Shown here piece by piece: positions 1,991 to 54,091 of a stretch of 64,000 nt of DNA. The stretch is from NCBI GenBank assembly GCA_947053925.1, contig CAMRUG010000002.1, positions 174,003 to 238,002 of the forward strand, written 5' to 3'. Below the pieces are notes generated by a model. The model worked only from the letters and a program-made list of their open reading frames with translations, was not told where the DNA came from and ran no database searches. Numbering within the stretch: the first letter of the stretch is position 1; the number at the start of each line of letters is the position of its first letter. This DNA is from an uncultured Clostridia bacterium (GTDB lineage Bacteria > Bacillota > Clostridia > Christensenellales > CAG-314). Position numbers and translations under genes: made by a program.

Positions 1991-2065
1991 AGGGGAGTGG
2001 CTCAACGGTAGAGCAGCGGTCTCCAAAACCGCCGGTTGCGTGTTCGAATCGCGTCTCCCCTGCCA
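1991..2065 (+). tRNA. trnW: tRNA-Trp (anticodon CCA)
   Basis: 75-nt cloverleaf read by eye. Acceptor AGGGGAG/CTCCCCT; D arm GCTC-AACGGTA-GAGC; anticodon arm GCGGT-CTCCAAA-ACCGC; variable CGGTT; T arm GCGTG-TTCGAAT-CGCGT. Discriminator G and an encoded CCA. Confidence 0.93.
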
Positions 2066-2067
2066 GC

Positions 2068-2098
2068 AAGGATACACCGTTGTGTGTCCTTTTCTTTT
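2068..2098 (+). terminator. Terminator hairpin directly after tRNA-Trp
   Basis: 10-bp stem AAGGATACAC/GTGTGTCCTT (one U-G wobble) with loop CGTT, followed by TTCTTTT. It abuts the rnhA RBS. Confidence 0.65.
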
Positions 2099-2107
2099 AG
2101 GAGTAGA

Positions 2108-2599
2108 ATGAAAAAGGTAACTATTTATACAGACGGCGCTTGTTCGGGCAATCCGGGCATAGGCGGTTGGGGAGCAGTGCTTTTATATAACGGCGTACCT
2201 AAGCAAATCAGCGGCTACGATAAAAGTACAACAAATAACCGTATGGAATTATTTGCGGTTATTCAAGCATTGCGGTGTCTAAATCAGAGTTGCGAATGTG
2301 AAATTTACAGCGATTCGCAATATATTGTAGACGCGTTTAATAAAGACTGGATTACTGCTTGGCAGAATAACGGTTGGAAAACGTCTTCTAAAAGCGAAGT
2401 TAAAAATATAGATTTATGGCGCGCGCTTTTGTACGAAACGCAAAAACATAGCGTAAAATTTATAAAAGTTAAAGGACACGCAAATGTAGAGCATAACGAA
2501 ACATGCGATAAACTTGCGCGCGGAGAAGTTGAACGCTATCAGAAAATTTTAAAAGAATCGGGAACTTTGCCTTTGGAAAATGAAACAAAAAGCGAGTAA
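2108..2599 (+). CDS. rnhA: Ribonuclease HI
   Basis: Starts MKKVTIYTDGACSGNPGIGGWGAVL. Acidic RNase H catalytic positions are present (TDGAC, NNRMEL, SDSQY, ETCDKLA). TAGGAG RBS lies 5 nt upstream of the ATG at 2108. The track ORF start at 2036 runs through the tRNA and is not used. Confidence 0.9.
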   Translation: MKKVTIYTDGACSGNPGIGGWGAVLLYNGVPKQISGYDKSTTNNRMELFAVIQALRCLNQSCECEIYSDSQYIVDAFNKDWITAWQNNGWKTSSKSEVKNIDLWRALLYETQKHSVKFIKVKGHANVEHNETCDKLARGEVERYQKILKESGTLPLENETKSE

Positions 2600-8640: not shown

Positions 8641-9721
8641 TGTTATCCTTATTTTGTTTATTATTAGACATATTATCCGTTCGTAAAGATACTTTTGTTG
8701 ACGCATTGCGGCGAATGTCGTCCGTAATTGCGGCATAGTGGCGTTTTGTTGTGTTTACATCCTTGTGTCCTAAGACATCTGCAACAACGTAAATATCGCC
8801 TGTATTGCGGTATAACTGCGTGCCGAAAGTCGAACGTAGTTTGTGCGGAGTAATATGTTTGAGCGGTGCGGCAACAAGACTGTATTTTTTTATAATATTT
8901 TCAACAGCACGGGTAGTAATGCGCCGTTTTTGCAGTGAAAGAAATAGCGCAGGTTCGTTTTTAAGAGATTTGTCTGCTGTGCGCATACAATAATAGTCGT
9001 ATAAGTAACCGGCAACTTCTTCCGAAAAATACAGTATTACGCGCGCGCCGCCTTTTCTTGTTACGACAAAACTTAAATCGTTAAAATTGACGTCGTCAAC
9101 GTCTATTCCGACAAGTTCGCTTACGCGAATGCCTGTTCCCAAAAGTAAACTTACAATGGCGAGATCTCTTACTCGGGTATTTTCTTGGTATTTCTGCTGG
9201 CGTGTTGACAATCCGTCGCCCGTATCGACTACTTCGAACATAGCGTTAATTTCGTCAGTATCTAAACGGATTATTTCTTTTTCGCGCAATTTAGGCGTAT
9301 CGACAGATGCAGTAGGGTTATATTTTATTATTTGTTTTTTTTCAAAATAGCGTATCATAGAACGAATTGCCGCAAGTTTTCTGCTTTTGCCGCGCTCGCT
9401 GTTTTTTATGATATTTCCTTCCGCGTCCTTGTAAATTTCGACATAGTTAAGATATGCTTCGATTTCGAAAGGAGAAAGTTGTTCAATATCCGTCGGCGTG
9501 ATTTCTTTTGTATTTTTGCCTTTTAAGCGGTACACTTTTTTTGTCAGATAATTGAAAAATGTTCTTATGTCATAAGCGTAATTCAATCGGGTCAATGCCG
9601 TAGTGTTGCCGGAAATACCAACAAAATACTCCCTGCAAAAGTCGGGTAAATCTTCATCGAGAATATGTTCTAATTTTTCGAGATTGTCAGCGTCTCTTTT
9701 GTTGAAATAAGTTTTACTCAT
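8633..9721 (-). CDS. Tyrosine recombinase, XerC/XerD-like (site-specific integrase family)
   Basis: N-terminal SAM-like core-binding domain. C-terminal catalytic signature: TGIRVSEL ... HKLRSTFGTQL ... LGHKDVNTTKRHY. Its 3' end overlaps the hflX start. Confidence 0.85.
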   Translation of the reverse strand: MSKTYFNKRDADNLEKLEHILDEDLPDFCREYFVGISGNTTALTRLNYAYDIRTFFNYLTKKVYRLKGKNTKEITPTDIEQLSPFEIEAYLNYVEIYKDAEGNIIKNSERGKSRKLAAIRSMIRYFEKKQIIKYNPTASVDTPKLREKEIIRLDTDEINAMFEVVDTGDGLSTRQQKYQENTRVRDLAIVSLLLGTGIRVSELVGIDVDDVNFNDLSFVVTRKGGARVILYFSEEVAGYLYDYYCMRTADKSLKNEPALFLSLQKRRITTRAVENIIKKYSLVAAPLKHITPHKLRSTFGTQLYRNTGDIYVVADVLGHKDVNTTKRHYAAITDDIRRNASTKVSLRTDNMSNNKQNKDNNE

Positions 9722-9958
9722 ATTGTTATTTTACCCTAAAATTGTCTCCAAATCAACAGTATTAGGGAATTTTGCGAATAAATATTCTCAATGCGAAGAA
9801 GGTCATTGTGGAAATCTGATTAAATTTTAAGATTTTTCTCTGGTCTAATTGTTTGATTGATGAAAAATTGTAGGGCGCAGGGCTGAAAGATTAACAGATT
9901 AGTTGCAGGCAGATTGACAAACAGGGAAGTTAATTTGTGCAGAAGTCGGCACAGCAAT

Positions 9959-10044
9959 ACGTTTGTTTTTAAAGCTTGATTGGCAATCAAATATGCGGAG
10001 CTAAAATATGCGCCCTGATAGAATAACCTGTATCCGTAAGCGTA
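9959..10044 (-). pseudogene. Fragment of a ynbB-like paralog (degenerate copy of 10961..11040)
   Basis: An 86-nt segment aligns with 80 nt of the downstream gene, with 5 mismatches and 3 small indels (net +6). The minus strand translates to YAYGYRLFYQGAYFSSAYLIANQALKTN, against the gene's YAYGYRLFYQGIFLAPHIVNQALKTS. A stop codon lies immediately upstream and there is no start. Confidence 0.75.
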
Positions 10045-10385
10045 TTATTTTCGGAAGTTTGACGAATATATTGGGTGTGTGGCAGTTGCTGTGGCTCACA
10101 TAAACGTTGAATGGGTTTAGAACTCCAAAGTAGTGAGTAAAAATAAAAAATTTATTTTCAAAGTGTCTTCTGTAAGCGCAGAGATAGCAACAGTGTGTCA
10201 AAATAGATGGGTTAAATTGTGCGTATAAGCAAAAAATATGTGGTATACCACTAAAATAATTTTGATTTTCTACAAATGTTTCAATATAATTTTAAACAAG
10301 CGAACAGAATTCTATGTGCTGTTTGAATTTGTGTCCTATGAAATTATCTATGAATTATTTGACCCTAAGCATATTAGCTGTTATG

Positions 10386-10421
10386 TATCTATTCGCAAAA
10401 CACTGCTTTTGCGAATAGATA
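10386..10421. repeat. Perfect 15-bp inverted repeat (hairpin/palindrome) in orphan spacer
   Basis: TATCTATTCGCAAAA - CACTGC - TTTTGCGAATAGATA. No flanking U-tract on either strand. Confidence 0.8.
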
Positions 10422-10605
10422 TGGATAAAAATAGTGCGCAGAGCGTTAAAAATATAAATCTGACGATAATTTTTCCATATCACAGTTAACTTATTATCTA
10501 TATTTATTGAACAGGAAGAATTCATCAGCTTTGATTGTTTATTGGGCATATGGTTGTTATGTGTCCATTTTTTCTTCTTGATTCCTGTAGAATAAAGAAG
10601 ATTTG

Positions 10606-28810: not shown

Positions 28811-31207
28811 TTACCTTAATGACGCCCCGTACTTGGCGTTAATGTTTTTTAATGCTTTTCCGGATTGCTTTTCCACATCCGAATCTTGCAATGTTTTGTT
28901 CATATCTCTAAAAACTACCGATACAGCCAGACTTTTTTTACCTGCACCTATTTGCTCTCCGCGGTAGACGTCAAACAGTTTGGCATCTTCAACAAGAGAC
29001 AGGCACAAAAATTCGTCTAATATGTCCTGCGCCGCAATATCTTCATCGCAGACAAAAGCAAAATCGCGTGTTACCGACGGGAATTTTGCAAAAGGACGGA
29101 AACGAATTTCCCCGTTTGAATTTTGCAAAGAACCGTTCTTCAAATCTATCAGTCTGTCTAGATACAATTCGGCGTACATACAGTCGCACTTAATTTCAAA
29201 ATTTTGAGCAATTTGCGGATGGATACGTCCAAAATAGCCGCAACATACCTCTCCTACCATTATGTCTGCCGACACACCCGTATGCAATACGCAACTATCC
29301 GAGCGTATCAGCTTGACTTTATCTTGCGCAAAATAATGTATTATCTGTAAAATATCCGCACGGAAATCTTCAAAACTAACATCGGTAGCACACACGGAAA
29401 TACGCGTTTGTTCATACGGTAATACCGAAAGAGGCAGTTTATCCGCCAAATATACTCTGCCTACTTCAAATAATCGTAGATTAGAATTATTGCGCGCCAA
29501 ATTGAGCGAAACGCATTGTAACATATTCGGAGCCAAATTTCTGTTCATCATAGACAAATCTTCGCCTATAGGATTTTTAATTCTAATATACGCACTATCG
29601 TTTATCGGCGAAACGCTTGCTTTTTCAAATAATTCCTTGCCGCCAAAAGAATAAAAAATACATTCGTTATAGCGCATTCCCGTCAGCAAGCTCTCAATGT
29701 CGTATATCACTTTTTCAACACAAGATTTGCCGCCGCAAGTTACCTGCGATTTTTCCAACAATGTTCCCGTTATATTGTCATAACCGTAAACTCTGATAAT
29801 TTCTTCGATAATATCACAATCACGATATATATCGTCTCTATATGGCGGAACAATACAAGTAATTTGTTTGTCTTGTATTGTTGTGCGTATATTTAACGAT
29901 TGCAAAATAGATATTATTTTTTCTTCTGGAATTTCAATTCCCAACAGATTCTTAATCTTACTTTGTTTAAAAGTTACGGTTTTGCTATCGGCAACTTTAC
30001 CGGTACTGATTCTGCCTGCAGTTACTTTACCGCACCCGAGTTGTTCGGCAAGATGCAAGGCGCGAGAAAGCCCCAAATTATTGGTATACGTCTCTATTCC
30101 CTTCTCAAAACGTGCAGAAGAATCCGATTTCAACCCGAGTCTACGGCTTGTCCTACGAACATTTAAACGGGCAAAAGACGCGGATTCAAATAAAACGCAA
30201 TTTGTACTTTCTTTTATTCCGGAATTTGCACCGCCCATAATTCCCGCAAGTCCAACAGCACGGTCATTATCGGCAATGACTAAATCATCGTTATTCAATA
30301 CATATTCTTTGCCGTCTAGCGGGATGATTTTTTCTCCGTTAGTTGCGCGGCGCACAATTATCGTTTTATCGCTGATATCGCTATAATCGAACGCGTGCAT
30401 AGGTTGCCCTATTTCATAAAGCACGTAGTTAGTAATATCCACAAGATTATTTATTCCGCGAAGTCCGACTTTGGCAAGTCTGCTTGTTAACCATATAGGA
30501 GATTTTTCGATTTTAACGTCAGTAAGTCCCTGCATATAATAGCCCTTGCATATATCAGTCGCCCGAATGGCTACTTTTACTAAACTGTCAGTTTTAATAT
30601 CCGTTTCACTGTAAGCAATATCAGGCTCTTTACAATTTTTCCCGAGAGCAACCGCTACTTCACGCGCAAGTCCTAAAACGCTGTTACAATCCTGACGGTT
30701 TGCCGTAATACTAACGTCAATTATGTAATCGTCTATACCAACCTCGCCGCGAATATCCGCTCCGACTTGCGCAGTATCTTTAAGTATCAAAACTCCGTCG
30801 GTATCCGCATTAGGATACATATCGGCAGTAATACCCAACTCATCGGCGCCGCAAAACATTCCCCAAGATTCCTCTCCGCGCATTTTCCCCTTAGTAATGT
30901 GCAGTCCGTTAGCAAGATTTGCGTTATGCAATGCCACAGGTACTTTGTCTCCGATTTTTACACGATGGTCGTTTGTAACGATAGGAATAATATTTCCGCC
31001 GATATCTACTTTACAGCAAAGCAATTTGTCGGCATTCGGATGCCGGCTGATTTCCGTGATTTTACAAACTTTAACATTAGTAACGTTCTCTCCAAGGTAG
31101 ACGACTTCCTCAATTTCCAGCCCTATATCTACCATTTTTTTACATAGCGTATCTATATCTTCTGTAATGTCTACATAATCTTTTAACCAAGAAAGAGGTA
31201 ATTTCAT
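28811..31207 (-). CDS. pheT: Phenylalanine--tRNA ligase beta subunit
   Basis: 798 aa. N-terminal tRNA-binding OB domain (MKLPLSWLKDYVD, HPNADKL), B3/4 and B5 domains, and a C-terminal anticodon-binding-like domain. Confidence 0.95.
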   Translation of the reverse strand: MKLPLSWLKDYVDITEDIDTLCKKMVDIGLEIEEVVYLGENVTNVKVCKITEISRHPNADKLLCCKVDIGGNIIPIVTNDHRVKIGDKVPVALHNANLANGLHITKGKMRGEESWGMFCGADELGITADMYPNADTDGVLILKDTAQVGADIRGEVGIDDYIIDVSITANRQDCNSVLGLAREVAVALGKNCKEPDIAYSETDIKTDSLVKVAIRATDICKGYYMQGLTDVKIEKSPIWLTSRLAKVGLRGINNLVDITNYVLYEIGQPMHAFDYSDISDKTIIVRRATNGEKIIPLDGKEYVLNNDDLVIADNDRAVGLAGIMGGANSGIKESTNCVLFESASFARLNVRRTSRRLGLKSDSSARFEKGIETYTNNLGLSRALHLAEQLGCGKVTAGRISTGKVADSKTVTFKQSKIKNLLGIEIPEEKIISILQSLNIRTTIQDKQITCIVPPYRDDIYRDCDIIEEIIRVYGYDNITGTLLEKSQVTCGGKSCVEKVIYDIESLLTGMRYNECIFYSFGGKELFEKASVSPINDSAYIRIKNPIGEDLSMMNRNLAPNMLQCVSLNLARNNSNLRLFEVGRVYLADKLPLSVLPYEQTRISVCATDVSFEDFRADILQIIHYFAQDKVKLIRSDSCVLHTGVSADIMVGEVCCGYFGRIHPQIAQNFEIKCDCMYAELYLDRLIDLKNGSLQNSNGEIRFRPFAKFPSVTRDFAFVCDEDIAAQDILDEFLCLSLVEDAKLFDVYRGEQIGAGKKSLAVSVVFRDMNKTLQDSDVEKQSGKALKNINAKYGASLR

Positions 31208-31220
31208 ATCGTCATTTCTC

Positions 31221-32237
31221 CTATTTACCGAATTGCTTTAAAAAACGTTGATCGTTTTCAAAAAACAGCCTGATATCGGGTATACCGTATTTTATCATAG
31301 CAATGCGCTCTAGCCCCATACCGAATGCGTATCCGTTGTACTTTGCGCTGTCAATTCCGCAATTTTCCAAAACTTTGGGATTGACCATTCCCGCACCCAA
31401 TACTTCTATCCAACCCGTTCCTTTACATAAAGAGCAGCCTTTTCCGCCGCAATTACTGCAAGTAAGGTCGACTTCTACGCTGGGCTCGGTAAAGGGGAAG
31501 AATGAGGGACGGAAACGTACCTTGGTATCCTTTCCGAACAAGTGCGAAGCAATGTACTCTAACGTTCCTTTTAAATCTCTTAGCGTTACTTTTTTATCCA
31601 CAACCAAACCTTCTATTTGATGGAATACGGGCGAATGAGAGGCGTCGCTGTCCGAACGGAATACTTTACCGGGGCACACCATTTTAATCGGAGGTTTTTT
31701 ATTTTCCATATACCTTGCCTGCATAGAAGAAGTTTGAGTACGCAACAATATGCCGTCTGCCAAATAAAACGTATCTTGCATATCCCGTGCAGGGTGATCA
31801 TAAGGAATATTCAGCGCCTGAAAGTTGTAATAATCCGTTTCTATTTCCGGTCCGTTCAACACTTCAAACCCCATAGCAATCAAAAGATCGCATATTTCGT
31901 TTTTTACCAATGTAACCGGATGCAAAGCGCCCCAGGGCTTCATTTCGCACAGACTGATATCTATCTTCTCGTTTTTAAGACTCAGTTCCATTTCCTGACG
32001 CTTTAATTGCGTCAATTTTTCGGAAAAAGTACTTTCCATTACATTTCTGAGTTCGTTTACTTTTGCTCCGAATGTCGGCCGCTCTTCGGGCGGCAAATCT
32101 CTTATTCCTTTAAGAAGCGCTGTAAGTTCCCCCGTCTTACCCAAATACTTAACTTTCAAATCTTGTATTACTGCTACAGAAGTGCAACTTGATATTTCAC
32201 GTTCGAATGTAGCTTTAATTTCCGCTATTGTGCTCAT
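31221..32237 (-). CDS. pheS: Phenylalanine--tRNA ligase alpha subunit
   Basis: Class II aaRS motifs (HPARDMQDTFY, FRPSFFPFTEPS, GMGLERIAM). The ATG at 32237 sits behind AAAGGAGAA. The track start at 32267 lies inside the leader terminator. Confidence 0.95.
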   Translation of the reverse strand: MSTIAEIKATFEREISSCTSVAVIQDLKVKYLGKTGELTALLKGIRDLPPEERPTFGAKVNELRNVMESTFSEKLTQLKRQEMELSLKNEKIDISLCEMKPWGALHPVTLVKNEICDLLIAMGFEVLNGPEIETDYYNFQALNIPYDHPARDMQDTFYLADGILLRTQTSSMQARYMENKKPPIKMVCPGKVFRSDSDASHSPVFHQIEGLVVDKKVTLRDLKGTLEYIASHLFGKDTKVRFRPSFFPFTEPSVEVDLTCSNCGGKGCSLCKGTGWIEVLGAGMVNPKVLENCGIDSAKYNGYAFGMGLERIAMIKYGIPDIRLFFENDQRFLKQFGK

Positions 32238-32254
32238 AGTTTCTCCTTTAAAAT

Positions 32255-32538
32255 AATAAAGCCCCAAGTCGACAAAGCAACTTAGGACGATAATCTACCG
32301 TGGTACCACCTAATTTTAAAAAACCAAAAAGTTTTTTCTCTAAGTCGATAACGGAACCACCCGCAAGCAACTACTCTGTTTTTCATTGCCCGAACTCAGA
32401 AGGGAATATCTTTTTACGCAAAGGCAAGACTCTCACCGTCTCTTGCTCGCTCAACCATTGTCAGCCGTAAACTCTTTATCTTCGTCAGTGTCTTTGTAAC
32501 TTGCAATACAGTCTTTAAATCTACAAGTTTGTTAATTT
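32255..32538 (-). promoter_or_regulatory. T-box riboswitch leader (Phe) of pheST
   Basis: The minus-strand RNA contains AGAGA and AGAGUA boxes and the F-box CCGUUA. The T-box antiterminator core is AAAUUAGGUGGUACCACGG (plus-strand 32298..32310). A terminator CCUAAGU/ACUUGGG with a U-rich tail follows. UUC triplets occur in the predicted specifier region. Confidence 0.85.
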
Positions 32539-37959: not shown

Positions 37960-39102
37960 TTAGTTATTTGTAGCAATGTCTTTTATATAATCCCAGTAAG
38001 TTTTAGCATCTACATTGCTTTGTACCGCAACAGACACTTCTTTAACAACTGCGCCGCTACTGTCTAACAACTTCGCCTTTCCTACGATATCCCCCTGTTT
38101 TACGGGAGCTTTAACCTTAGCGTCGATTTCATATTCTACCGTATAGTCAACGCTTCCTTTGCTGCCGAATGCAACAAGTTTGTCCGTAGCCGCTATTTGC
38201 GCTGTCTTTTCCTTTCCGCCGACTACTTCTATTTCGCCGATATTACTGTGTTTATCTACGTAAACTTTACTTTCGTAATTGGCAAAAGCATAGTTAAACA
38301 TTTTAGATACTTCGTTAAAACGCGTCTTGCTGTCGGGCGCGCCTACTACAACCGCTATGATACGCGTATCTCCGCGCTTAGCCGTAGCAGACAAACAATG
38401 CTGCGCTTCGCTTGTATAACCCGTCTTACCGCCGTCGCAACCGTCATAAAAACGTATCAACTTGTTCGTATTGGTCATTCCCGTAACTCTTCCGGACGGG
38501 TGAACAAAGTCTTCCATCCAAATGCGCGAGCAAGTAAAGTAATGTTGGTGCTTTATCAAATTTGCAAACATAATGGCAACGTCTTTGGCGCAAGAGAATT
38601 GACTTACGGCAGGCAGCCCGGTACAATTTTCAAAGTGAGTAGCAACAAGCCCTAATTCTTTTGCTTTGGCATTCATTCCCTCAACAAAGTTTTCTACGCT
38701 TCCGCTAACGTGCTCCGCCACTGCAACACAACTGTCGTTTGCCGAGCAAACCACAATCGATTTGATAAGATTTTCCAACTTATACGAAGCGTTTGCATCC
38801 AGAAAAACTTGTGAACCGCCCATAGACGCCGCCCTGCTGCTTGCTATTACATTGTCTTCAAGCGTAACTTTACCGTTGTCGATAGCGTCGTAGACGCATA
38901 GCAAAGTCATAATTTTTGTCATACTGGCAATCGGACGTTTTTCCGTCGCATTGCTTTCGTAAATTATTTGACCGTCTTCAGACATCAATATCGCTTCGCG
39001 CGAAGTCGTTACAATAGTATTTTCTGCGCAAGCGGTAATAGGTACTAGAACGGCAGTTATAATTGCAATAAACAAAAATACTCCCAGTAACTTTCTAGTC
39101 AT
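37960..39102 (-). CDS. D-alanyl-D-alanine carboxypeptidase (S11, PBP5-type; dacB/dacF-like)
   Basis: Signal peptide. SxxK (ASMTKIMT), SxN (CSANDS) and KTG (GGKTGYT) motifs. C-terminal beta-sandwich domain. Confidence 0.9.
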   Translation of the reverse strand: MTRKLLGVFLFIAIITAVLVPITACAENTIVTTSREAILMSEDGQIIYESNATEKRPIASMTKIMTLLCVYDAIDNGKVTLEDNVIASSRAASMGGSQVFLDANASYKLENLIKSIVVCSANDSCVAVAEHVSGSVENFVEGMNAKAKELGLVATHFENCTGLPAVSQFSCAKDVAIMFANLIKHQHYFTCSRIWMEDFVHPSGRVTGMTNTNKLIRFYDGCDGGKTGYTSEAQHCLSATAKRGDTRIIAVVVGAPDSKTRFNEVSKMFNYAFANYESKVYVDKHSNIGEIEVVGGKEKTAQIAATDKLVAFGSKGSVDYTVEYEIDAKVKAPVKQGDIVGKAKLLDSSGAVVKEVSVAVQSNVDAKTYWDYIKDIATNN

Positions 39103-39319
39103 ATATCTCTCCTTAGTTGTTTTACTTTAGCATTTGCAAAATAAGAGAAAATATACATAAGCACTACTTTCATACAATCTTCTATACTGTTAGGAATATC
39201 TGCTATTGTATCTAATTGTTTCGTCCGCAAAAGAATGCAGAAATATGCAAGAAGCGTAATTAAATTATATTGCAAATGAAAAAACTCGACAAAGAATTTG
39301 AAAAACATAAAAATATTTA

Positions 39320-39395: not shown

Positions 39396-39726
39396 TTAAT
39401 ATTGAAATTCATAATCCGATTCTTGAATTATCTCGCCTGTTGCTACGAGTTTGTTGCCTTCATATAAATTAATTTTTGATCCTATATATAAATTATCTGG
39501 TGCATTTTTTGTATTGAGATAACGTACATATGCCATTGTATTATTTCCTTAATATATTTAAAAGAATAACATATTAATCCGAAAGCATTTTGGTCGGTAT
39601 CTTGTTGCCCATCAACTGATACTAACGGACAATATCTATCATAATTTATTGGAGGGGGGGGGATATCCTTCCGCCATCGCATGGTTTAATCCAATGGATA
39701 TCTGCTATAAAGACTTTTGTATTCAA
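39396..39726 (-). pseudogene. Frameshifted small gene resembling EF-Tu domain 3 (three ORF pieces in three frames)
   Basis: Piece A starts at TTG 39726 behind AAAGAGGTG: MNTKVFIADIHWIKPCDGGRISPP, then a stop just after the C9 tract. Piece B is 39482..39682 (..IPPPPINYDRYCPLVSVDGQQ..). Piece C is 39396..39536 (MAYVRYLNTKNAPDNLYIGSKINLYEGNKLVATGEIIQESDYEFQY). Joined, they mimic the EF-Tu pattern ..L.K.EGGR..P....YRP......F.I.EG.rtVGaG.V. Confidence 0.6.
39654..39662. repeat. G9/C9 homopolymer tract
   Basis: Nine consecutive G on the plus strand, an outlier in this AT-rich window. It lies inside the frameshifted small gene and encodes the PPP(P) stretch. Confidence 0.95.
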
Positions 39727-39847: not shown

Positions 39848-40252
39848 TTATTCTGTTCTTTCAATATAATCTAAAAGGTTTTGTTTTCCTGTTTCAAATT
39901 CCAGATATACAACATCGTCTTTAGTAATTCCAACAATCGGAATGTTATAACTATCCCAGAAGTACCTTGGCGCTACAATAATATTTATTATATCTCCGCA
40001 CTTTACCTTGGTATGCAAAGTTGGCATATCAATCAAACGAAAAGGCGAATAGGTATAATGAACGTGGACATCATATAAAAATTCCACTTCCATATATTCT
40101 TCTTCAATTGAATTTACCTTAACTTCCAACGTCTCATAGTTCAAATCATCGCTATAATATTCCAGCATTCTTTTTTTATAGTGGCATCCCGAAAAAAACA
40201 CACACATACCTATTATTAGGATAATTAAGATTATACTCACAGTTTTTTTCAT
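39848..40252 (-). CDS. Hypothetical lipoprotein
   Basis: Signal peptide with lipobox MKKTVSIILIILIIGMCVFFSGC. The 134-aa mature part has no motif I recognise. Confidence 0.65.
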   Translation of the reverse strand: MKKTVSIILIILIIGMCVFFSGCHYKKRMLEYYSDDLNYETLEVKVNSIEEEYMEVEFLYDVHVHYTYSPFRLIDMPTLHTKVKCGDIINIIVAPRYFWDSYNIPIVGITKDDVVYLEFETGKQNLLDYIERTE

Positions 40253-42096: not shown

Positions 42097-42672
42097 TCAA
42101 ATTACGGCAGTTAGTATTTTCATTATGACAAAGAAAGCTACAATTTTGTAAATAAAGCCCAAAGCAAGCAATATTCCGACTTGATGAAAATCTCGTACTG
42201 CCTCGTCAAATTTACGACATATCGGCTTTTCGCACAGACACACAAAACAAGACATACAATACACAGCAATGTCTTCCAGCGCTATAAGTATTACAAAAAG
42301 AACTCCCCATATTACCGACACAGTAAACAATGCCACTACTGTTGCGCCAACATATAAACAAGCAATAAATGTTGCAACACAACAAAGCCAATATGTCTCT
42401 TTGAGCATATTACATAAAATCAAAATTAAATACAGTACCAAATAGCTTAATAAGAATAACAAAAAAGCCGAAAATCCGCCCGCCATTAACTTATTGGCAA
42501 ATTCGCATCTGTTAAAATACCACCAACCGTACTGAAAAGCATAGAAAAATGCAATTCCGCACGCAATGCCTGCAACACAAAAAACTGCGCACATAATGAA
42601 ACGCCATTTATAAGCGCATATTTTATATCCGATATCATATACAGTATTTTTGATATAATGTATAAAGCCCAT
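42097..42672 (-). CDS. Hypothetical cysteine-rich multi-pass membrane protein
   Basis: About 5 predicted TM helices and about 14 Cys, including the cluster YCMSCFVCLCEKPICRK. Start MGFIHY (42672) or upstream (42735) is uncertain. There is not enough similarity to call it SpoIIM. Confidence 0.5.
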   Translation of the reverse strand: MGFIHYIKNTVYDIGYKICAYKWRFIMCAVFCVAGIACGIAFFYAFQYGWWYFNRCEFANKLMAGGFSAFLLFLLSYLVLYLILILCNMLKETYWLCCVATFIACLYVGATVVALFTVSVIWGVLFVILIALEDIAVYCMSCFVCLCEKPICRKFDEAVRDFHQVGILLALGFIYKIVAFFVIMKILTAVI

Positions 42673-42740
42673 ATCAATTGATATGAGCTTTATTTTAAAA
42701 ATATACGCCGAAAAGTAATTTTGCCATATCGGCAAAGGTA

Positions 42741-46116: not shown

Positions 46117-46569
46117 TTAATAAAGTAAACGGTTTATTTCTTGCGTAAATATTTCGGCATTACGGGAAGTGGAACAGACGGCGAGTACGGTGCTGCGGTC
46201 CGCAACCATTCCCACCACTTCGGACAAACCGAGCTGTTCTAATGCGCCCGATACGGCAGACGCGCTATCTGCAAGCGTCTTAATCACCACAAGGTTATTT
46301 GCCGTTATAACCGAAATAACAGTCTCACGGACGATATTCAATAGCTTACCCGACAAACTAGAATCAATTTTCTGCTTTGTTACATATTTATACTTCTGAT
46401 TTGCGGTAAGAGTTTTAACAAGTCCCAATTCTTTTATATCGCGCGAAATTGTGGCTTGAGTAACATTATAACCGGCATAATTCAGCTCGCTAACCAATTC
46501 GTCCTGCGTCTCGATATCACGAGAAGATATAATGCTCAATATTTTTGACTGTCTTGATGCTCTTGACAT
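46117..46569 (-). CDS. argR: Arginine repressor
   Basis: N-terminal wHTH (ITQDELVSELNYAGYNVTQATISRDIKELGLVK) and a C-terminal oligomerisation/arginine-binding domain (GTIAGDDT-like region degenerate: GMVADRSTVLAV). Confidence 0.88.
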   Translation of the reverse strand: MSRASRQSKILSIISSRDIETQDELVSELNYAGYNVTQATISRDIKELGLVKTLTANQKYKYVTKQKIDSSLSGKLLNIVRETVISVITANNLVVIKTLADSASAVSGALEQLGLSEVVGMVADRSTVLAVCSTSRNAEIFTQEINRLLY

Positions 46570-47112
46570 TTCCGCTCCTATTTCAGTAAATCATTCTGCC
46601 GCTTCGACTGATAACTTTATCAATTTTGTTTAGTAAATTTATTTCAAGGTTAATCTGAAAGACATTTTTTAATAGTGTTCGTTATACCATTTGGATTGTT
46701 GCGTATTATATATCACACACGCATAAAACGGATTGGCACTTTTATATAAGTTGCGTAATGCAATGTATAATGGTTGTTAAGCATATTTAATTGTAGTTAA
46801 ACGCACTTAAACTTAGTTGTGAATTATATTATAAGTTCAGAATTTGTATAACTCTCTGTAACTCGTACAGACAAACATATAATATACATTGATGTTTTCG
46901 CCAGAATAGACGAAAAATGTGATTTCGCGATATTCAGGTTAAACACCGACATACTACATATACCAAACGACGGAAATTTTGATTTGCCGTTTAATGGTAC
47001 ATTAACTTCTAAAAAACAAACTCCAAAAAGATTTTTGCTATTTTATCATCTGAACAATATTATATATCTTTCATCTTCAATTTAATAATTATAAATCTTT
47101 TTGAATTTTTAT

Positions 47113-48915
47113 TCAAGTATTTGCAAGCATATCGTTTATAACTTGACGTATAAACGTAATATTAAAGTTGTTATCGGACATTTGTTCAGATATTGTAGCG
47201 TGCGAAACAAATTTATCTTCAACTCCGAGAATTTTCAATGTGTTTCTTTTTTTTGTAGATGTAAGCCACCGTGCAACGCTTTGTCCGAATCCTCCGCTAA
47301 TAACATTCTCTTCAAGAGTAATTACCGCTTTTTCAGTTGAATACAAAAAAGCATCGTCCAACGGCTTAACTGTAGTTACATCCACTACCTCAATATCAAT
47401 GTCTGCAACCGCTTGCAATGCAAGTTCAACCATACGAGAACCAACTGCAAGAACAGTAATCTTTCCCTTATCTGTTTGCTTAACTACATTCCAAGTTCCT
47501 GTAAAATTGCGCTTTGCATCCGATAAATTTTTAGAATATCTGATTGCAACGGGTCCAAGTTCGCTTACGCTTGCAGTAATCATTTGAGATAATTCCAAGT
47601 AAGTTGAGGGCGTCCATATTTTTAAATTAGGTATGTTGCCGAGATAAGATAAATCAAAGAGGCCTTGGTGCGTTTTTCCGTCAGAACCAACAAACCCTGC
47701 TCTGTCTATCAAAAATGTAACCGGCAAATTTTGCAATGCAACGTCATGAAGAATTTGGTCGTAACTGCGTTGCAAAAACGTTGAATATATGGCAACAAAT
47801 GGCTTAGAGCCGCCTTTCGCTAAACCGGCAGCAAATGTTACTGCATGTTCTTCCGCTATACCGACGTCAAAAAATCTATCGGAAAATCTTTGTTTAAATT
47901 CGTCCAAACCGTTTGCGCGAGTCATAGCGGCGCATACCGCCACTACGGATTTGTCATTCTCGGCGAGATTGCAAAGAGTATCGCCCACAACGACGCAACT
48001 GTCTAAAGGACTGCTAATACTGTTTTGACTCGTTACGGAATGGTAATTTTCGGGGTCGTTTTCAGCTGGCAAATATCCCTTGCCTTTTTTAGTAACGATA
48101 TGTAAAACCGTCGGTTTGGTTACGTTATTCTTTATTTTAGTAAGATAATAAACTAAGTCTCTAATCTCGTTGCCGTCAATTATGCCGATATATTTTAAAT
48201 CAAAGTTGTCAAAATAACTGTTTCTGACATATCTGAGTTTAGCGCGGCGTTTACACCAACGCAAAAAACGGTAAGTAGGTTTACCAAGCAACGGAACGGC
48301 GAGCAAAAACTTTTTAAGTCTTTCTTTATTGCGGTCATATTTTCCAACGCGCAGTTTAGACATATTTACGGTAGCAGAACCTACATTGTCGCTGATAGAC
48401 ATATTGTTGTCGTTTAATATGACGAGGAAATTAGTTGCGTCTTTAATGTTATTTAACGCTTCGTAAGTCATACCGCAAGTCATAGAACCGTCGCCGACAA
48501 CAGATACTACGTTATAAGAATCTCCTACAATATCGCGTGCTTTTGCCAACCCGAGCGCCGCAGAAATCGACGTGCCTGCGTGCCCCGTATTAAAGCAATC
48601 GCTTTCGCTTTCAGAGCAATCGGGAAATCCGCTCAAACCGTTTTTTTGCCGTAAAGTAGAAAAATTCTCACCGCGATCGGTGAGAATTTTGTGAACGTAA
48701 CTTTGATGCCCAACATCCCACACTATCTTGTCATTTTCGTCAAATACGTAATGCAATGCAACGGTAAGTTCAACAGCGCCCAGATTGCTTGCTAAATGTC
48801 CGCCGGTTTGTAAAACTTCTGTAATAAGTTTTTGACGGATATCGGCACATAACTCGGGGAGTTGTTTTATGTCGAGCTTTTTTAAATCTTGAATATTTTT
48901 TACTTGTTCAAGCAC
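47113..48915 (-). CDS. dxs: 1-deoxy-D-xylulose-5-phosphate synthase
   Basis: Blocks GGHLASNLGAVELTVALH, GHAGTSISAALG and the TPP-binding VGDGSMTCGM, plus transketolase-like pyrimidine-binding and C-terminal domains. Confidence 0.95.
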   Translation of the reverse strand: MLEQVKNIQDLKKLDIKQLPELCADIRQKLITEVLQTGGHLASNLGAVELTVALHYVFDENDKIVWDVGHQSYVHKILTDRGENFSTLRQKNGLSGFPDCSESESDCFNTGHAGTSISAALGLAKARDIVGDSYNVVSVVGDGSMTCGMTYEALNNIKDATNFLVILNDNNMSISDNVGSATVNMSKLRVGKYDRNKERLKKFLLAVPLLGKPTYRFLRWCKRRAKLRYVRNSYFDNFDLKYIGIIDGNEIRDLVYYLTKIKNNVTKPTVLHIVTKKGKGYLPAENDPENYHSVTSQNSISSPLDSCVVVGDTLCNLAENDKSVVAVCAAMTRANGLDEFKQRFSDRFFDVGIAEEHAVTFAAGLAKGGSKPFVAIYSTFLQRSYDQILHDVALQNLPVTFLIDRAGFVGSDGKTHQGLFDLSYLGNIPNLKIWTPSTYLELSQMITASVSELGPVAIRYSKNLSDAKRNFTGTWNVVKQTDKGKITVLAVGSRMVELALQAVADIDIEVVDVTTVKPLDDAFLYSTEKAVITLEENVISGGFGQSVARWLTSTKKRNTLKILGVEDKFVSHATISEQMSDNNFNITFIRQVINDMLANT

Positions 48916-48916
48916 A

Positions 48917-49576
48917 CTAGCCTTCTTTGCGGAAAACGCTTAAAAATTTTGCAACGCCGAAGATAATATTATTGGCCCTATTTACGGCATAATTTTTACC
49001 TATCGCTTTAAAAGTAATTGTCATTGTTGAGATAATGGCATATATCGCTACTTTAATAAAAAAGTTGGCAATATCCGAAAGATTCTCAGTAAAATCACGC
49101 GTTACGCTTAAAACAATAGATGCGGCGCATACACCGGAGACGATTCCGCATATATCGCCTACAATATCGCAACATACGGATGATACGATATGACTTTTCT
49201 TAGATAATTTAACTGCTGTCTTAGCCCCTTTAACTTTACGCGAAGCCATAGCCAAAAACGGTTCGACATCACAAGAAGTTGCCGCCGTGCCTACCATATC
49301 GAATGCTACGCCTAACGCCAATATCAAAAGCGTTAACAGACAAGACAACCATATTTGCGCGTCAGACAGTACCAATTCCGATGCCGCATTAACTCCCGCC
49401 GACAAAAACAAAGTAATAACGAACGCTTTCAGCGGCCACAAATTGTGTTTTTTCTTTTTCTTTTCGTTTTTTTCTTTCTTCTTATCCGTCTGGGCAGACT
49501 GACTGACTGCAATATTCTGTTCTTGTTCGTTTGTTTCGCTTTGTTCCCGTAACGGAACAGGGTCAGAATTTTTCAT
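48917..49576 (-). CDS. oapA: Small four-pass membrane protein, probable OLE-associated protein A
   Basis: 219 aa with a Lys-rich N-terminal tail (TDKKKEKNEKKKKKH) and about 4 TM helices bearing intramembrane acidic motifs (FDMVGTAATSCD, CCDIVGD). It sits immediately downstream of the structured RNA and 1 nt upstream of dxs, which is the canonical oapA position. Confidence 0.65.
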   Translation of the reverse strand: MKNSDPVPLREQSETNEQEQNIAVSQSAQTDKKKEKNEKKKKKHNLWPLKAFVITLFLSAGVNAASELVLSDAQIWLSCLLTLLILALGVAFDMVGTAATSCDVEPFLAMASRKVKGAKTAVKLSKKSHIVSSVCCDIVGDICGIVSGVCAASIVLSVTRDFTENLSDIANFFIKVAIYAIISTMTITFKAIGKNYAVNRANNIIFGVAKFLSVFRKEG

Positions 49577-49597
49577 AAATCTCCGTTATTATTTTAA

Positions 49598-49622
49598 ACG
49601 GCAAAACAAATATTTTGCCGCT
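49598..49622 (-). other. Hairpin between the structured RNA and oapA (weak terminator/processing signal)
   Basis: Minus strand: CGGCAAAA - UAUUUG - UUUUGCCG followed by UUUAAAAU, about 20 nt before the oapA RBS GGAG. Confidence 0.4.
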
Positions 49623-49656
49623 TTAAAATTCTTTTGATTATTTATAATATAAAATA

Positions 49657-50226
49657 GGTGGTGACTTGTTAAATAAACCTTACGGCATAGGTTCAGTAGG
49701 ATTTCCCAAGCAAAAACTCCCCGTCGCCGAAGAAGCAGTTTCCTTTTAATTTTGCCTACAATGCGTCGCCGCAATCGTAACTGAATCGCCACTTAGTCCG
49801 TACTATAATCTCTAACAAGTCTAGTTACAGTCTAGAAGATTTCCTTTGCAGTAATGTCGTATTTTAGTTTCTTTTGCAAAATTCATTTCGTAAAGCCATC
49901 GGTAAACGTTGTCGGCCAACAAGCGCTCACCGTTCATTACTCCCAAAATTTCACTCAAAACAAGCTACTCTGTACACAGCTTTTTATTCACCGCATAGCA
50001 GGTTTAATCTCAGAGAGTAGCGACAAATGTTGCCACCCTGTAGAGTCTCCACGAATACTGGGACTATGACGTATGCCATTACGCTTTACCCACCATTCTT
50101 AACTTCCAGCACCAACCCTCGTTTGGGCAACGAAAGCCAGCACAAGAAACTTCATCGATATGCTCGTCGACGGTCTTTTAGGCCCGCCTTCAATACGTCG
50201 ATTACTGACTAGAATACTGCACCACC
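49657..50226 (-). ncRNA. ole: Probable OLE (ornate, large, extremophilic) RNA; boundaries approximate
   Basis: This ORF-free spacer is richer in G+C than other spacers in the window. The termini form a 7-bp long-range helix (5' GGUGGUG ... CACCACC 3', ~570 nt apart), and many local hairpins lie between them. The gene order xseA-xseB-ispA-[RNA]-membrane protein-dxs matches the known OLE/oapA locus. No covariance-model search was possible. Confidence 0.7.
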
Positions 50227-50263
50227 AAATTATATTCAATTAAGAGTTTTAAACTCAGTTATA

Positions 50264-50292
50264 ATTTTAGCATATTATAGAAAAATATGCAA
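50264..50292 (-). promoter_or_regulatory. Candidate sigma-A promoter in front of the structured RNA
   Basis: The minus strand reads TTGCAT - 17 nt - TAAAAT, about 35 nt upstream of the 5' GGUGGUG helix strand. Confidence 0.45.
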
Positions 50293-50334
50293 GTGTATTG
50301 AATGTTATGCCCGAAAAGGTGATTTTTTGAGAAT

Positions 50335-51144
50335 CTATTTTGTCCTGATCAAATTTTGCTCAACAATATTTTCAATAAATGTCATATCATACGGCAATTT
50401 GGCAATAAGCGCTTTTATTTCATCCGTCAGTTTTAACGTGTAATCTTTTAAAGCGCGTTCACTCATAACATCCAAAAACGATTTTTCACACTTATTTGAG
50501 TCGAGCATATCGTCCACAGCCTGATAACAAATGCCGAGTTTTATTGCCACTTGGTCCAGAATTTCTGTTTCCTCGTCATTTGCGCCGGCGCACAATGCCC
50601 CGCAAACTAATGCAGCTCGAATCAAATCGCCAGTCTTATGCAGAGCAACATCGTTAGCTTCTTCTACCGTTTTTGTTTCGGTAAACAAATCCAAAGACTG
50701 TCCGCGTACCATACCGTTAATCCCGCTCATTTTAAGCATAAACTGACAAGCTTTTGCATATCCCTTATTGCTTAAAGAACCTTTGAATAACGTTTCTACG
50801 GCAAGGTTTAGCAATGCGTCGCCGGCAAGAACCGCGGCGGCTTCGCCAAACTGCATATGGCAAGACCTTTTACCGCGTCTTACGTCGTCATTGTCCATAC
50901 AGGGCAAATCATCGTGAATAAGCGAATAAGTATGGATAAATTCCAATGCGGCGGCCATAATTTTAGCATTTTCGTTAATCTTACCACCGACAGCTTTTGC
51001 TGTAGCAAGCAGCAGCATCGGTCTTATGCGTTTACCTCCGCTAAAAAGACTATACTGCATCGCCTGAGCAACTTTATCGTTGCTGTTAGGAAAGTAGCCA
51101 CGCAAAATCTCATCTACAATTTCAATGCCAATACTATTTTTCAT
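50335..51144 (-). CDS. ispA: Farnesyl/geranyl diphosphate synthase (polyprenyl synthetase)
   Basis: First Asp-rich motif LIHDDLPCMDNDDVRRG and second motif QAVDDMLD. Confidence 0.92.
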   Translation of the reverse strand: MKNSIGIEIVDEILRGYFPNSNDKVAQAMQYSLFSGGKRIRPMLLLATAKAVGGKINENAKIMAAALEFIHTYSLIHDDLPCMDNDDVRRGKRSCHMQFGEAAAVLAGDALLNLAVETLFKGSLSNKGYAKACQFMLKMSGINGMVRGQSLDLFTETKTVEEANDVALHKTGDLIRAALVCGALCAGANDEETEILDQVAIKLGICYQAVDDMLDSNKCEKSFLDVMSERALKDYTLKLTDEIKALIAKLPYDMTFIENIVEQNLIRTK

Positions 51145-51331
51145 CTGTCAATTTCCTCACTTTTTCCTGCAATACTACAAGTTTTCCTTTACAATCGTTT
51201 AAAGTTTTTAGGCAATCTTCCGCCAAATTAACACTTTCTTCAAAAATTGCAAGAGACTCTTCCAGCGATAAGCCTTCTTCAATCTGCGTTGCTAATTTAT
51301 CTAGTTTATCAAGTTTTTGTTCCAAGCTCAT
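51134..51331 (-). CDS. xseB: Exodeoxyribonuclease VII small subunit
   Basis: 65-aa helical protein (LEESLAIFEESVNLAEDCLKTL) that overlaps both neighbours within the xseA-xseB-ispA order. Confidence 0.9.
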   Translation of the reverse strand: MSLEQKLDKLDKLATQIEEGLSLEESLAIFEESVNLAEDCLKTLNDCKGKLVVLQEKVRKLTDEK

Positions 51332-52503
51332 TTTTTCACCTTATCGATAACTTTTGCATAAATTTCGCCGTCATATAGCGTCATTCGTATTTTAGAATCA
51401 ACTTCAATATCGTCAACCGATTTTACAACATTGCAGTTATTAGAGATATAAGCATAACCGCGCTGCAAAACTTTAACAGGATTCATCGAATCGATTTTCG
51501 ATAGATTATTATCAATAGCATTTTTGACGTTTATTGTGCACAATTCTACCGAATTTTGTATGGAATACAATCGCTGTCTAATAGTAGCGACAGTTTGTTC
51601 GACATTATAGGCAATATCGGCATTTACTCGCCTTGTGTCGTAATTTACTTTGTCAAAATACGATTTTAATCTTGCTAATATCATTGCCTGATTGTGTTCA
51701 AGCAGTGAATAAATTTTATCTTTGATTTGTCGGGAATCTATTGTAACAAATTCAGCCGCTTCCGAAGGCGTAACCGCACGGCGGTCTGCGGCAAAATCAC
51801 ACAGGGTAAAGTCAACGCCGTGCCCTACAGCCGAAACAATCGGCTTGTTACAATTTGCAACTGCACGGACTACGACTTCAGAATTGAATACGGATAGATC
51901 TTCATTAGAACCGCCGCCGCGTCCTACAATTACAACGTCTACATCAGCTGTATTAAAATAATCAATACCTGCGGCGATTTCTTCGCTTGCGCCGTCGCCC
52001 TGAACTTTTACAGAATATAAAATCAAATCAGTAAAGGGCTGTCTCCTTAAACATACATTAGTAATGTCGTGAATCACAGCTCCGGTTTGACTGGTTACTA
52101 CGCCCACCTTTCTGCAACACTTGGGGACAACTCTTTTTCTCGATTCGTCAAACAAACCTTCCTTTTCAAGTTTTTCTTTCAATTCAACAAATCTGAGATA
52201 GGCAGTTCCCGTATTCAAAGTAGAAGTCAAACGTCTTACAAAAAAAGATAAGCTCCCTGTTCTGGTAAAATAATTTATCTGACCTTCCGCTACAACCATA
52301 TTGCCTGCTTCTGGAACAGTCAAACTGTCATAGCAAAAACAGTTTACGGCAGCAGAATCGTCTTTAAGCGAAAAATACCAGCCGTCGCGGGACTTTTTTA
52401 TATTGGTAATTTCACCGCAGACAGAAACGTTCCCTAGCACTCCGTCAATATCAATTATTCCGCGAATGTAATTATTAAGTTGAGTAACGTTAATTGTCAT
52501 CAA
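51328..52503 (-). CDS. xseA: Exodeoxyribonuclease VII large subunit
   Basis: N-terminal OB fold (VCGEITNIKKSRDGWYFSLKD) and catalytic core (VVTSQTGAVIHD, IVGRGGGSNEDL). Confidence 0.93.
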   Translation of the reverse strand: MMTINVTQLNNYIRGIIDIDGVLGNVSVCGEITNIKKSRDGWYFSLKDDSAAVNCFCYDSLTVPEAGNMVVAEGQINYFTRTGSLSFFVRRLTSTLNTGTAYLRFVELKEKLEKEGLFDESRKRVVPKCCRKVGVVTSQTGAVIHDITNVCLRRQPFTDLILYSVKVQGDGASEEIAAGIDYFNTADVDVVIVGRGGGSNEDLSVFNSEVVVRAVANCNKPIVSAVGHGVDFTLCDFAADRRAVTPSEAAEFVTIDSRQIKDKIYSLLEHNQAMILARLKSYFDKVNYDTRRVNADIAYNVEQTVATIRQRLYSIQNSVELCTINVKNAIDNNLSKIDSMNPVKVLQRGYAYISNNCNVVKSVDDIEVDSKIRMTLYDGEIYAKVIDKVKK

Positions 52504-53761: not shown

Positions 53762-54091
53762 TTAATTTTCTTCAAACTCTACGTCAATGACGTGTACATT
53801 CACGTCTTTTACCTTAAACTCAGTCATACTTTCTATCGTATTTTTGACGGTATTTTGTATATTGCTGGCGACATCGCTTACCTCAACATTGTATCGGAGT
53901 TTAACGTAAACGTCCACATACATTTCATCGGCAATCTGTTCAACCTTTATTGAGTCGCGGGCTTGCTTGGAATTCTCCGTATATTTTACAACGCCGTCGA
54001 CTTCGTTTAATGCGCAGTCAACTATGTCTCGCAAGATTTCGCTACTGTATACAAGTCTTCCCGACTTATCAAACCTATTTATAACCTTCAT
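53762..54091 (-). CDS. Asp23/Gls24 family envelope stress protein (YqhY-like)
   Basis: Block ILRDIVDCALNEVDGVV with an acidic C-terminus. It sits upstream of nusB, as yqhY does in B. subtilis. Confidence 0.85.
   Translation of the reverse strand: MKVINRFDKSGRLVYSSEILRDIVDCALNEVDGVVKYTENSKQARDSIKVEQIADEMYVDVYVKLRYNVEVSDVASNIQNTVKNTIESMTEFKVKDVNVHVIDVEFEEN

Follow-up and report, generated by a model that had tools for sequence, protein, structure and literature searches.

A full-length OLE RNA gene followed by oapA in a conserved gene cluster of a gut Clostridia bacterium

The window, that is, the whole stretch of 64,000 nucleotides that was analysed, contains a spacer of 758 bp (49577..50334) that separates ispA, encoding a polyprenyl/farnesyl-diphosphate synthase (50335..51144), from an open reading frame for a protein of 219 amino acids (48917..49576), with spacer and genes all read from the minus strand. 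On the basis of motif, fold and synteny, the gene for the 219-residue membrane protein is referred to here as oapA, for OLE-associated protein A. Upstream of ispA we find xseB (51134..51331) and xseA (51328..52503), and downstream of oapA follows dxs (47113..48915), whose start lies 2 nt past the oapA stop, leaving a single nucleotide in between. A first-pass annotation of this DNA had pointed to the xseA-xseB-ispA-[ole]-oapA-dxs arrangement known from OLE RNA genes, and the gene-order check reproduced this order exactly, all six elements being located on the minus strand. Seen more broadly, the cluster reads nusB-folD-xseA-xseB-ispA-ole-oapA-dxs-argR-recN. The same setting recurs elsewhere: among the OLE loci listed, an OapA homolog is encoded downstream in 89 of the 92 with room for it, ispA lies upstream in 75 of 98, and dxs comes next in 49 of 58.

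Along the window the genes are arranged in the order rny ... lexA, hflX, an integrase gene, miaA, mutL, mutS, miaB, ... pheST (with a T-box), followed by yunB, spoVA genes, scpAB, ... spoIVB, recN, argR, dxs, oapA, ole and ispA, and finally by xseB, xseA, folD, nusB, asp23/yqhY, spoIIIAH-AA, efp, ... ribF and truB. The genes usually present between dxs and argR have been lost here, which is a departure at the level of the clade. The window carries the sporulation genes spoIIIAA-AH, spoIVB, spoVA and yunB, and the host therefore belongs to the endospore-forming Bacillota. Contigs from gut-type metagenome assemblies carry the identical locus, as do the metagenome-assembled genomes (MAGs) GCA_949747335.1 and GCA_965647135.1. 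Among the matches listed, the closest named OLE RNAs (80-84% identity) stem from uncultured Oscillospiraceae/Clostridia MAGs, one of them from sheep colon, and the remaining ones are about 68-70% identical to the RNA described here. The host is thus an uncultured spore-forming gut Clostridia bacterium represented by a MAG; its spore genes, the gut MAGs and its Clostridia/Oscillospiraceae relatives place it among the anaerobic or extremophilic Bacillota in which OLE RNAs reside.

OLE (ornate, large, extremophilic) RNAs have been described since 2006, and the family is present in Rfam. It has been catalogued in 2,822 GTDB genomes (PMC11332333) and, in another collection, as 8,585 non-redundant sequences (PMC12286853). 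The first-pass annotation had proposed an OLE/OapA ribonucleoprotein locus and had named a covariance-model search as a means of checking it. When this search was run, the Rfam model RF01071 matched the minus strand at 49642..50241 from model position 1 to 616 of 616, untruncated, at 458.2 bits (gathering threshold 50; E = 2.7e-131), so that the RNA is of the full-length type. The functional core, measured from P1 to P1 (50226..49657, minus strand), has a length of 570 nt. The proposal holds for both partners: the covariance model identifies the RNA, and the conserved motif, the predicted fold and the gene order identify the 219-residue protein as OapA. To see whether a further RNA was encoded nearby, such as in the gap between dxs and argR, 46400..50500 was scanned against Rfam at a low threshold, which yielded OLE alone; a TtnuCD3 candidate (27.5 bits against 70, E 0.75) was discarded as noise.

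For comparison, at least 120 OLE loci from named genomes were collected by means of a conserved 5' motif, and the 105 complete copies in this set, which was chosen by an exact motif of 20 nt, were aligned. In these motif-selected homologs, and with the search motif itself excluded, our sequence agrees with the consensus at 162 of the 165 columns in which conservation reaches 95% or more, in line with the near invariance of about a quarter of the nucleotides that is characteristic of OLE. Two of the three mismatched columns form one compensatory pair, in which C-G is replaced by U-A.

Projection of the model structure onto the sequence gave 154 pairs, 143 of which are standard. Over the 105 homologs, the Rfam pairs are standard in 88% of the alignment cells, a share that drops to about 41% after displacement of the 3' partners by one or two columns. 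A smaller alignment of 29 homologs gave 86.9% paired versus 70.7% in column shuffles, of which none in 500 reached the observed value, and 41-46% upon sliding; the covariation score amounted to 0.508 versus 0.215, and both sides change in 134 of 175 pairs distributed over 23 helices. A match of 600 nt, 570 nt from P1 to P1 and 23 helices agree well with the approximately 600 nt and some 25 covariation-supported substructures of OLE RNAs. The single sequence also folds more stably than its dinucleotide shuffles (minimum free energy -177.8 versus -157.8 +/- 5.9 kcal/mol, z = -3.4).

A perfect long-range complement of 7 nt, GGUGGUG with CACCACC, had been noted in the spacer. Both strings are located on the minus strand, at 50220..50226 and 49657..49663, respectively. 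By itself such a complement does not rise above chance, as the spacer contains 18 perfect 7-nt long-range complements compared with 12.8 +/- 4.5 in shuffles; the pairing is nevertheless real because it is the family helix P1, which is paired in 90-96% of the homologs versus 27-47% after sliding. Its core, GUGG/CCAC, is invariant, and its three outer pairs covary, swapping GC for AU and vice versa and running through UA/GC/AU/CG. The consensus of the 3' strand in the family is N-CCAC-NNN. Exact CACCAC used as a query for the 3' end recovered 23 of about 100 homologs, and the family-wide P1 core must therefore be given as CCAC and not as CACCAC. For P2, the candidate strands UAGUC and GACUG pair in every homolog (100%), but as they never vary, they are uninformative with respect to covariation. 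Three local hairpins had been quoted as well, and all strings were found (50084..50069, 49920..49908 and 49685..49678). GCGUA-AUGGCA-UACGU is the stem-loop carrying L6 and GUUG-GCCGA-CAAC is the tip of P9, so that these two stand. The third one, CC-GUAA-GG, does not exist as a local hairpin: CCGUA (RNA positions 557-561) pairs over a long distance with UACGG (440-444) in helix 19, which is 97.9% paired and covaries in four of its five pairs.

P3/P3.1 is formed by the strands CAGUAAU-CGA-CGUAUU (50192..50207) and AAUACG-AC-AUUACUG (49849..49863), both on the minus strand, and comprises 13-14 bp, i.e. 7 + 6 Watson-Crick pairs and one extra pair in the computed duplex. When the register was projected from this sequence onto the homologs, P3.1 was paired in 55% and, after a slide of -1, in 86%. 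The low score is an effect of alignment register caused by the variable internal loop and was resolved by an alignment-free duplex test on the 105 homologs, in which cognate strands formed a median of 13 bp (-14.4 kcal/mol) compared with 8 bp (-6.5) for non-cognate strands, with 95 distinct 5' strands entering the test. Together with covariation, this test supports both strands of the stem. P1 and P3/P3.1 are published helices that are not annotated in the Rfam consensus structure, and our independent sample of 105 genomes provides strong covariation support for them. A stem of about 12 bp formed by P3/P3.1 has been proposed to span the membrane, the transmembrane-RNA model being a proposal (PMC12265935), and CUAG and AUCGAU palindromes on either side of P3 have been mapped as OapA sites (PMC12286853, PMC12265935, PMC9723947, PMC7936274). 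The RNA described here has both the stem of suitable length and the flanking palindromes, UCUAGU at 50213..50208, AUCGAU at 50159..50154 and UCUAGA at 49836..49831, which as motifs are consistent with that model.

All elements that have been mapped in the literature for full-length OLE RNAs can be recognized as motifs in the present copy (all on the minus strand). The P4 loop L4, CCUAAAAGACC (50172..50182), is A-rich like its family consensus CCUAAAAAUCC and corresponds to the place where the A-A bridge B1 joins the two molecules of an OLE dimer (PMC12286853, PMC12265935). Loop L5, UGCCCAA (50123..50129), contains the conserved GCCCA, the GCC of which is complementary to GGC in loop L6, AAUGGCAU (50073..50080), a loop that is identical in 73 of 104 homologs and closed by helix 7 (97.9% paired); L5 and L6 kiss between protomers via GCC and GGC (PMC12286853, PMC12265935, PMC9723947, PMC7936274). 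The tip of P9 (49912..49919) presents the palindromic GGCC of L9, the self-kissing bridge B3 (PMC12286853). An A-rich L4, complementary L5 and L6 and a palindromic L9 are the sequence hallmarks of the dimer architecture, and the set is complete here.

The protein sites are retained likewise. The J4a/5 strand AUCGAUGAAGUU (50148..50159), identical in 89 of 104 homologs, includes the AUCGAU palindrome that has been mapped as an OapA site near P4a, and the strand itself is the k-turn site for OapC (PMC9723947, PMC12286853, PMC12265935). Its partner, the J6/7 strand CGUGGAGAC (50045..50053), has the sequence found most often in the family (52 of 104), so that both k-turn strands, AUCGAUGAAG and CGUGGAGAC, are present. 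The P13 hairpin (49758..49778, helix 21), the primary OapB site, reads ACGAU-U-GCG-GCGA-CGC-AUUGU, with a bulged U and a GCGA tetraloop of the GNRA type, is 93% paired and covaries in all eight of its pairs; binding of OapB needs such a GNRA loop and a one-base bulge (PMC7936274). The P14.1 hairpin (49716..49736, helix 23, 96% paired), again with a GCGA tetraloop, represents the secondary OapB site. Genes for OapB (KOW/SBB), OapC (L7Ae-like) and bS21 were searched for in the whole 64-kb window using Pfam and NCBIfam, and none was found.

The product of the gene downstream of the RNA exhibits the OapA signature D137-IVG-D141, a DxxxD motif in a predicted transmembrane helix, which is invariant in 54 relatives and, as D[VI][IV]GD, is found in some 90 of the 95 reading frames next to OLE among the loci listed; within the same collection, 95 of 99 reading frames downstream of OLE are significant phmmer matches. 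A basic loop, SRKVKGAKTAVKLSKKSH, at residues 112-129 is largely invariant in the 54 relatives and is the putative counterpart of the basic cluster that OapA proteins carry on the cytoplasmic face. The CNNM domain PF01595 scores 20 bits and thus falls below the cut-off of 28.4, and OapA has been described as just such a weak, sub-threshold CNNM scorer (PMC11332333). In an AlphaFold2 model (mean pLDDT 76), a disordered N-terminus is followed by four long helices (residues 47-70, 75-101, 128-165 and 168-199). The six best fold matches retrieved by Foldseek from the PDB are all transmembrane domains of the CNNM type, including MtCorB (7M1T, 7M1U) and CorC (7CFG, 7CFF), with probabilities of 0.97-1.0 and weak E-values (0.012-0.14); 7M1U is also the top published match for H. 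halodurans OapA (PMC11332333). A protein with four predicted transmembrane helices and a predicted CNNM-like fold, without the cytosolic CBS/CorC domains, is what is expected for OapA. Residues 1-45 of the protein constitute a disordered, Lys-rich tail with a run of KKKEKNEKKKKK, which is conserved in the 54 relatives of at least 58% identity and absent from the OapA proteins of Bacillaceae.

Three other explanations for the structured spacer were weighed against its identification as a full-length OLE RNA gene. Sense-strand reading frames of 45-67 amino acids can be listed mechanically, and the longest (67 aa, 49589..49792) might be taken for a small hidden gene or for the remnant of a decayed protein-coding gene. 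The first-pass annotation had seen no credible sense reading frame, and we agree, since each sense frame is interrupted by 14-17 stops, neither the frame nor the position of the 67-aa reading frame is kept in the three closest relatives among the loci listed (L115, L104 and L015) or in more distant ones, and the substitutions follow base-pair covariation instead of a codon-like pattern. The chance that protein-coding sequence explains the spacer is negligible. The high G+C content that had been noted was also confirmed, with 0.385 for the spacer and 0.42 for the OLE core compared with 0.11 to 0.40 (median near 0.28) in the 24 further spacers that measure 80 bp or more. Another possibility would be one of the reduced OLE variants, variant 1 (TANB77-type) or variant 2 (RF39-type), in which P7/P8 or the OapB site is lost and fewer partners are served. 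These variants occur in gut bacteria with small genomes, their P7-P9 are short or missing, and they have no OapB site (Fernando and Breaker, PMC11332333). An uncultured gut Clostridia MAG is indeed the type of habitat from which they have been described (PMC11332333), and one small hairpin of 4 bp after CUAGACUGU, the sole missing piece, is lacking here. That hairpin is optional, however, as no more than 5 nt are found at this place in 17 of 104 full-length relatives, and the equivalents of P7, P8 and P9 have their full lengths of 17, 13 and 35 bp, P13 keeps both the GNRA loop and the bulge, and the covariance model is matched from end to end (1-616). Nor is the genome obviously reduced, with full sets of sporulation and DNA-repair genes. 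We therefore rate a reduced variant as extremely improbable and consider it already refuted at the sequence level.

It might further be argued that the structured region serves mainly as a long cis-acting 5' leader that controls oapA-dxs and not as a stand-alone RNA, an idea that touches on how the locus is transcribed. A candidate promoter of the extended -10 type (TTGCAT, 17 nt, TGcTAAAAT; 50264..50292, minus strand) is situated just upstream, with a predicted start about 30 nt before P1; L104 and L015 share its architecture, and L115 has diverged from it. A consensus scan missed it because its -35 element matches in only three of six positions; the same scan returned 26 promoter-like sites versus 22.9 expected and 11 terminator-like sites versus 7.7, nothing being significant. 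Two of the terminator-like sites, 49734..49717 and 50172..50153, lie inside OLE and are no terminators but parts of P14.1 and of the P4 region, respectively. Between OLE and the ribosome-binding site of oapA, a gene that begins 80 nt past P1, there is a 9-bp hairpin, GCGGCAAAA-UAUUUG-UUUUGCCGU (49598..49621, minus strand), which is not followed by a U-tract and for which no conservation was found in L115, L104 and L015. This hairpin is probably not a terminator, so that read-through into oapA would be expected, and since it and a gap of 1 nt between oapA and dxs are all that intervenes, OLE probably arises as the 5' part of an ole-oapA-dxs transcript, and likewise through read-through from ispA, with subsequent processing as in H. 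halodurans (PMC12265935). The upstream promoter candidate, the lack of an intrinsic terminator ahead of oapA and the short distance to it would all suit a leader. In H. halodurans, the cluster is likewise polycistronic, and yet OLE is present at a level matched by few other RNAs, and it works in trans as part of a ribonucleoprotein (PMC12265935). In addition, 600 nt, about 25 covarying helices, dimer loops and three protein sites far exceed any known leader, and some loci carry the same RNA without dxs downstream. A role mainly as leader is thus very improbable. We are highly confident that the spacer is a full-length OLE RNA gene, followed by oapA, in a conserved cluster of a gut Clostridia bacterium.

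What such an OLE RNA may do in its host can be drawn, by homology, from work on Halalkalibacterium halodurans, Clostridium acetobutylicum and C. botulinum (PMC12265935, PMC12286853, PMC7936274, PMC9723947, PMC12054373, PMC10898510). Transcription would start at the extended -10 promoter of OLE itself and/or run in from ispA, oapA and dxs would be part of the same RNA, and OLE would accumulate as a stable species of about 570-600 nt. Two copies are predicted to dimerise through the A-A bridge of L4, the kissing loops L5/L6 and the GGCC loop L9. OapA, a putative CNNM-like transporter of divalent cations, would dock at the CUAG and AUCGAU palindromes flanking P3 and thereby act as a membrane tether for the RNA, the P3/P3.1 stem of 13 bp being placed against or across the bilayer, while OapB would clamp the GNRA hairpin P13 and OapC or bS21 would bind the k-turn. 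The particle may help the cells to cope with stress such as short-chain alcohols, cold, excess Mg2+ or poor carbon sources, most likely by coupling the conformation of the RNA to ion handling mediated by OapA.

OLE, a particularly large bacterial RNA, has recently been proposed as the first natural membrane-spanning RNA, a picture that the present copy leaves unchanged. The copy is orthodox, belongs to a class that is already known and reveals no new biology. Its departures, the Lys-rich tail of OapA, the candidate local promoter and the loss of genes between dxs and argR, are minor and confined to the level of the clade. One might speculate that OapA of the gut-Clostridia clade gained a Lys-rich tail of 30-110 residues as an extra element that contacts RNA or shields charge for the P3 stem or for domain 2 of OLE, as part of a clade-specific remodelling of OLE that, together with the promoter of its own, turned ole-oapA into an autonomous module, although we regard this as rather unlikely. 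The practical value lies in annotation: the 758-bp "spacer" should be labelled ole and the 219-residue "hypothetical protein" oapA.

The locus closely resembles that for the OLE ribonucleoprotein of H. halodurans (OapA-OapB-OapC), with which it shares a full-length RF01071 RNA in the context ispA-ole-oapA-dxs, the OapB site at P13 with GNRA loop and bulge, the k-turn strands and an OapA with the D-x-x-x-D motif. In the comparison with a Halalkalibacter locus (L110), the RNA aligns throughout and OapA is 36% identical. Differences from H. halodurans concern the RNA, which here shares about 68-70% identity with most other OLEs, the N-terminus of OapA, which is Lys-rich, disordered and about 45 residues long as opposed to the 8-26 residues that precede the first transmembrane helix in Bacillaceae, and the host, which is not an alkaliphile but a gut anaerobe. 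With the dimers of C. acetobutylicum and C. botulinum resolved by cryo-EM (PMC12286853; PDB 9LCR, cited in PMC12265935), the RNA shares the signatures of all three bridges, namely the A-rich L4, GCCCA in L5, UGGC in L6 and GGCC in L9. P3/P3.1 has 13 bp compared with about 12 bp described for Clostridium OLE, and L4 reads CUAAAAGA where the consensus is CUAAAAAU.

Among proteins, the predicted fold of OapA best matches the transmembrane domains of MtCorB/CorC and thus the MpfA/CorB/CorC group of CNNM Mg2+ transporters, with a weak resemblance to PF01595, a relationship that has been published for H. halodurans OapA as well (PMC11332333). Unlike these transporters, OapA is made up of just the membrane domain, with four transmembrane helices instead of three, contains the DxxxD motif and stays below the Pfam threshold (20 versus 28.4 bits). 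With the variant 1 (TANB77) and variant 2 (RF39) OLEs (PMC11332333), finally, the RNA shares a gut-derived uncultured host from the Bacillota, but it differs from those RNAs of gut bacteria with reduced genomes in having P7 and P8, a P9 of great length and an OapB site.

Transcription of the OLE RNA could be linked to a candidate extended -10 promoter at 50264-50292, upstream of the RNA (TTGCAT-17-TGcTAAAAT), which is kept in two OLE loci from other genomes, L104 and L015, and which had been overlooked by a consensus scan because its -35 element matches the consensus at only three of six positions. In the minimum-free-energy fold of the single sequence, P1, the long-range helix that closes the OLE core, is prolonged outward by a 7-bp A/U helix, AAUAUAA/UUAUAUU (RNA positions 6-12 with 590-596; window 50230-50236 with 49646-49652). 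As this extension is AT-rich and not evident among relatives, it may be fortuitous.

The neighbouring ispA gene (50335-51144) is short, encoding 269 aa, and its match to the FPP-synthase profile ends at residue 220, corresponding to profile position 224 of 288, so that the C-terminal ~50 residues are divergent. The same length of 269 aa recurs in gene calls on MAG contigs, which rules out an assembly artefact. Six genes upstream of ole, an Asp23/YqhY-family gene is present (53762-54091, minus strand); yqhY is listed as one of the most frequently ole-associated genes (PMC12265935).

On the other side of the locus, dxs and argR are separated by an AT-rich gap of 543 bp (46570-47112, 28% G+C), for which neither an ORF of at least 60 aa nor an Rfam match was found. 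Promoter-like sites are located on the minus strand at 47116..47088, in the region of the gap, and at 46850..46823, within it. Elsewhere among OLE loci, the distance from dxs to argR leaves 1000-1700 nt, room for one or two genes, possibly of the tlyA/rrmJ type, whereas such genes are absent here. A spo0A-type gene was not found at its usual place after spoIVB, and four minus-strand ORFs downstream of spoIVB (42097-42735, 39848-40252, 39482-39682 and 39099-39308; 212, 134, 66 and 69 aa) gave no Pfam or NCBIfam match.

Further features of the window include a T-box leader (32280-32497, minus strand; 103 bits vs a gathering score of 93) immediately upstream of pheS/pheT (31221..32267 and 28811..31207), and a lone tRNA-Trp (CCA) at 1991-2065 (plus strand). 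The mechanically called RNase H ORF (2036-2599, plus strand) begins with a TTG inside this tRNA, and the true start must therefore lie further downstream. A tyrosine recombinase/phage-integrase-family gene (8633-9721, minus strand) overlaps the 3' end of an hflX-like GTPase ORF, is followed by ~900 bp with small ORFs only (9722-10605), and could be xerC/xerD-like or a mobile-element remnant.

Two OLE loci with typical Bacillota synteny reside in MAGs labelled 'Deltaproteobacteria bacterium' (L048, JBLMYQ010000034.1) and 'uncultured Bacteroides sp.' (L101, CAZXUW010000003.1). Errors of binning or labelling probably explain this, in agreement with a remark on non-Bacillota hits (PMC11332333).

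OapA (oapA, 48917-49576) starts with a Lys-rich N-terminal tail of ~45 residues, KKKEKNEKKKKK (residues 1-45, roughly 49442-49576), which is disordered in the predicted structure (pLDDT <50). With start codons of distant ORFs set mechanically, OapAs of the gut-Clostridia clade share such a conserved tail, which spans 30-110 residues and contains 11-20 K/R ahead of the first transmembrane helix, whereas Bacillaceae OapAs have just 8-26 residues with 2-4 K/R before this helix.
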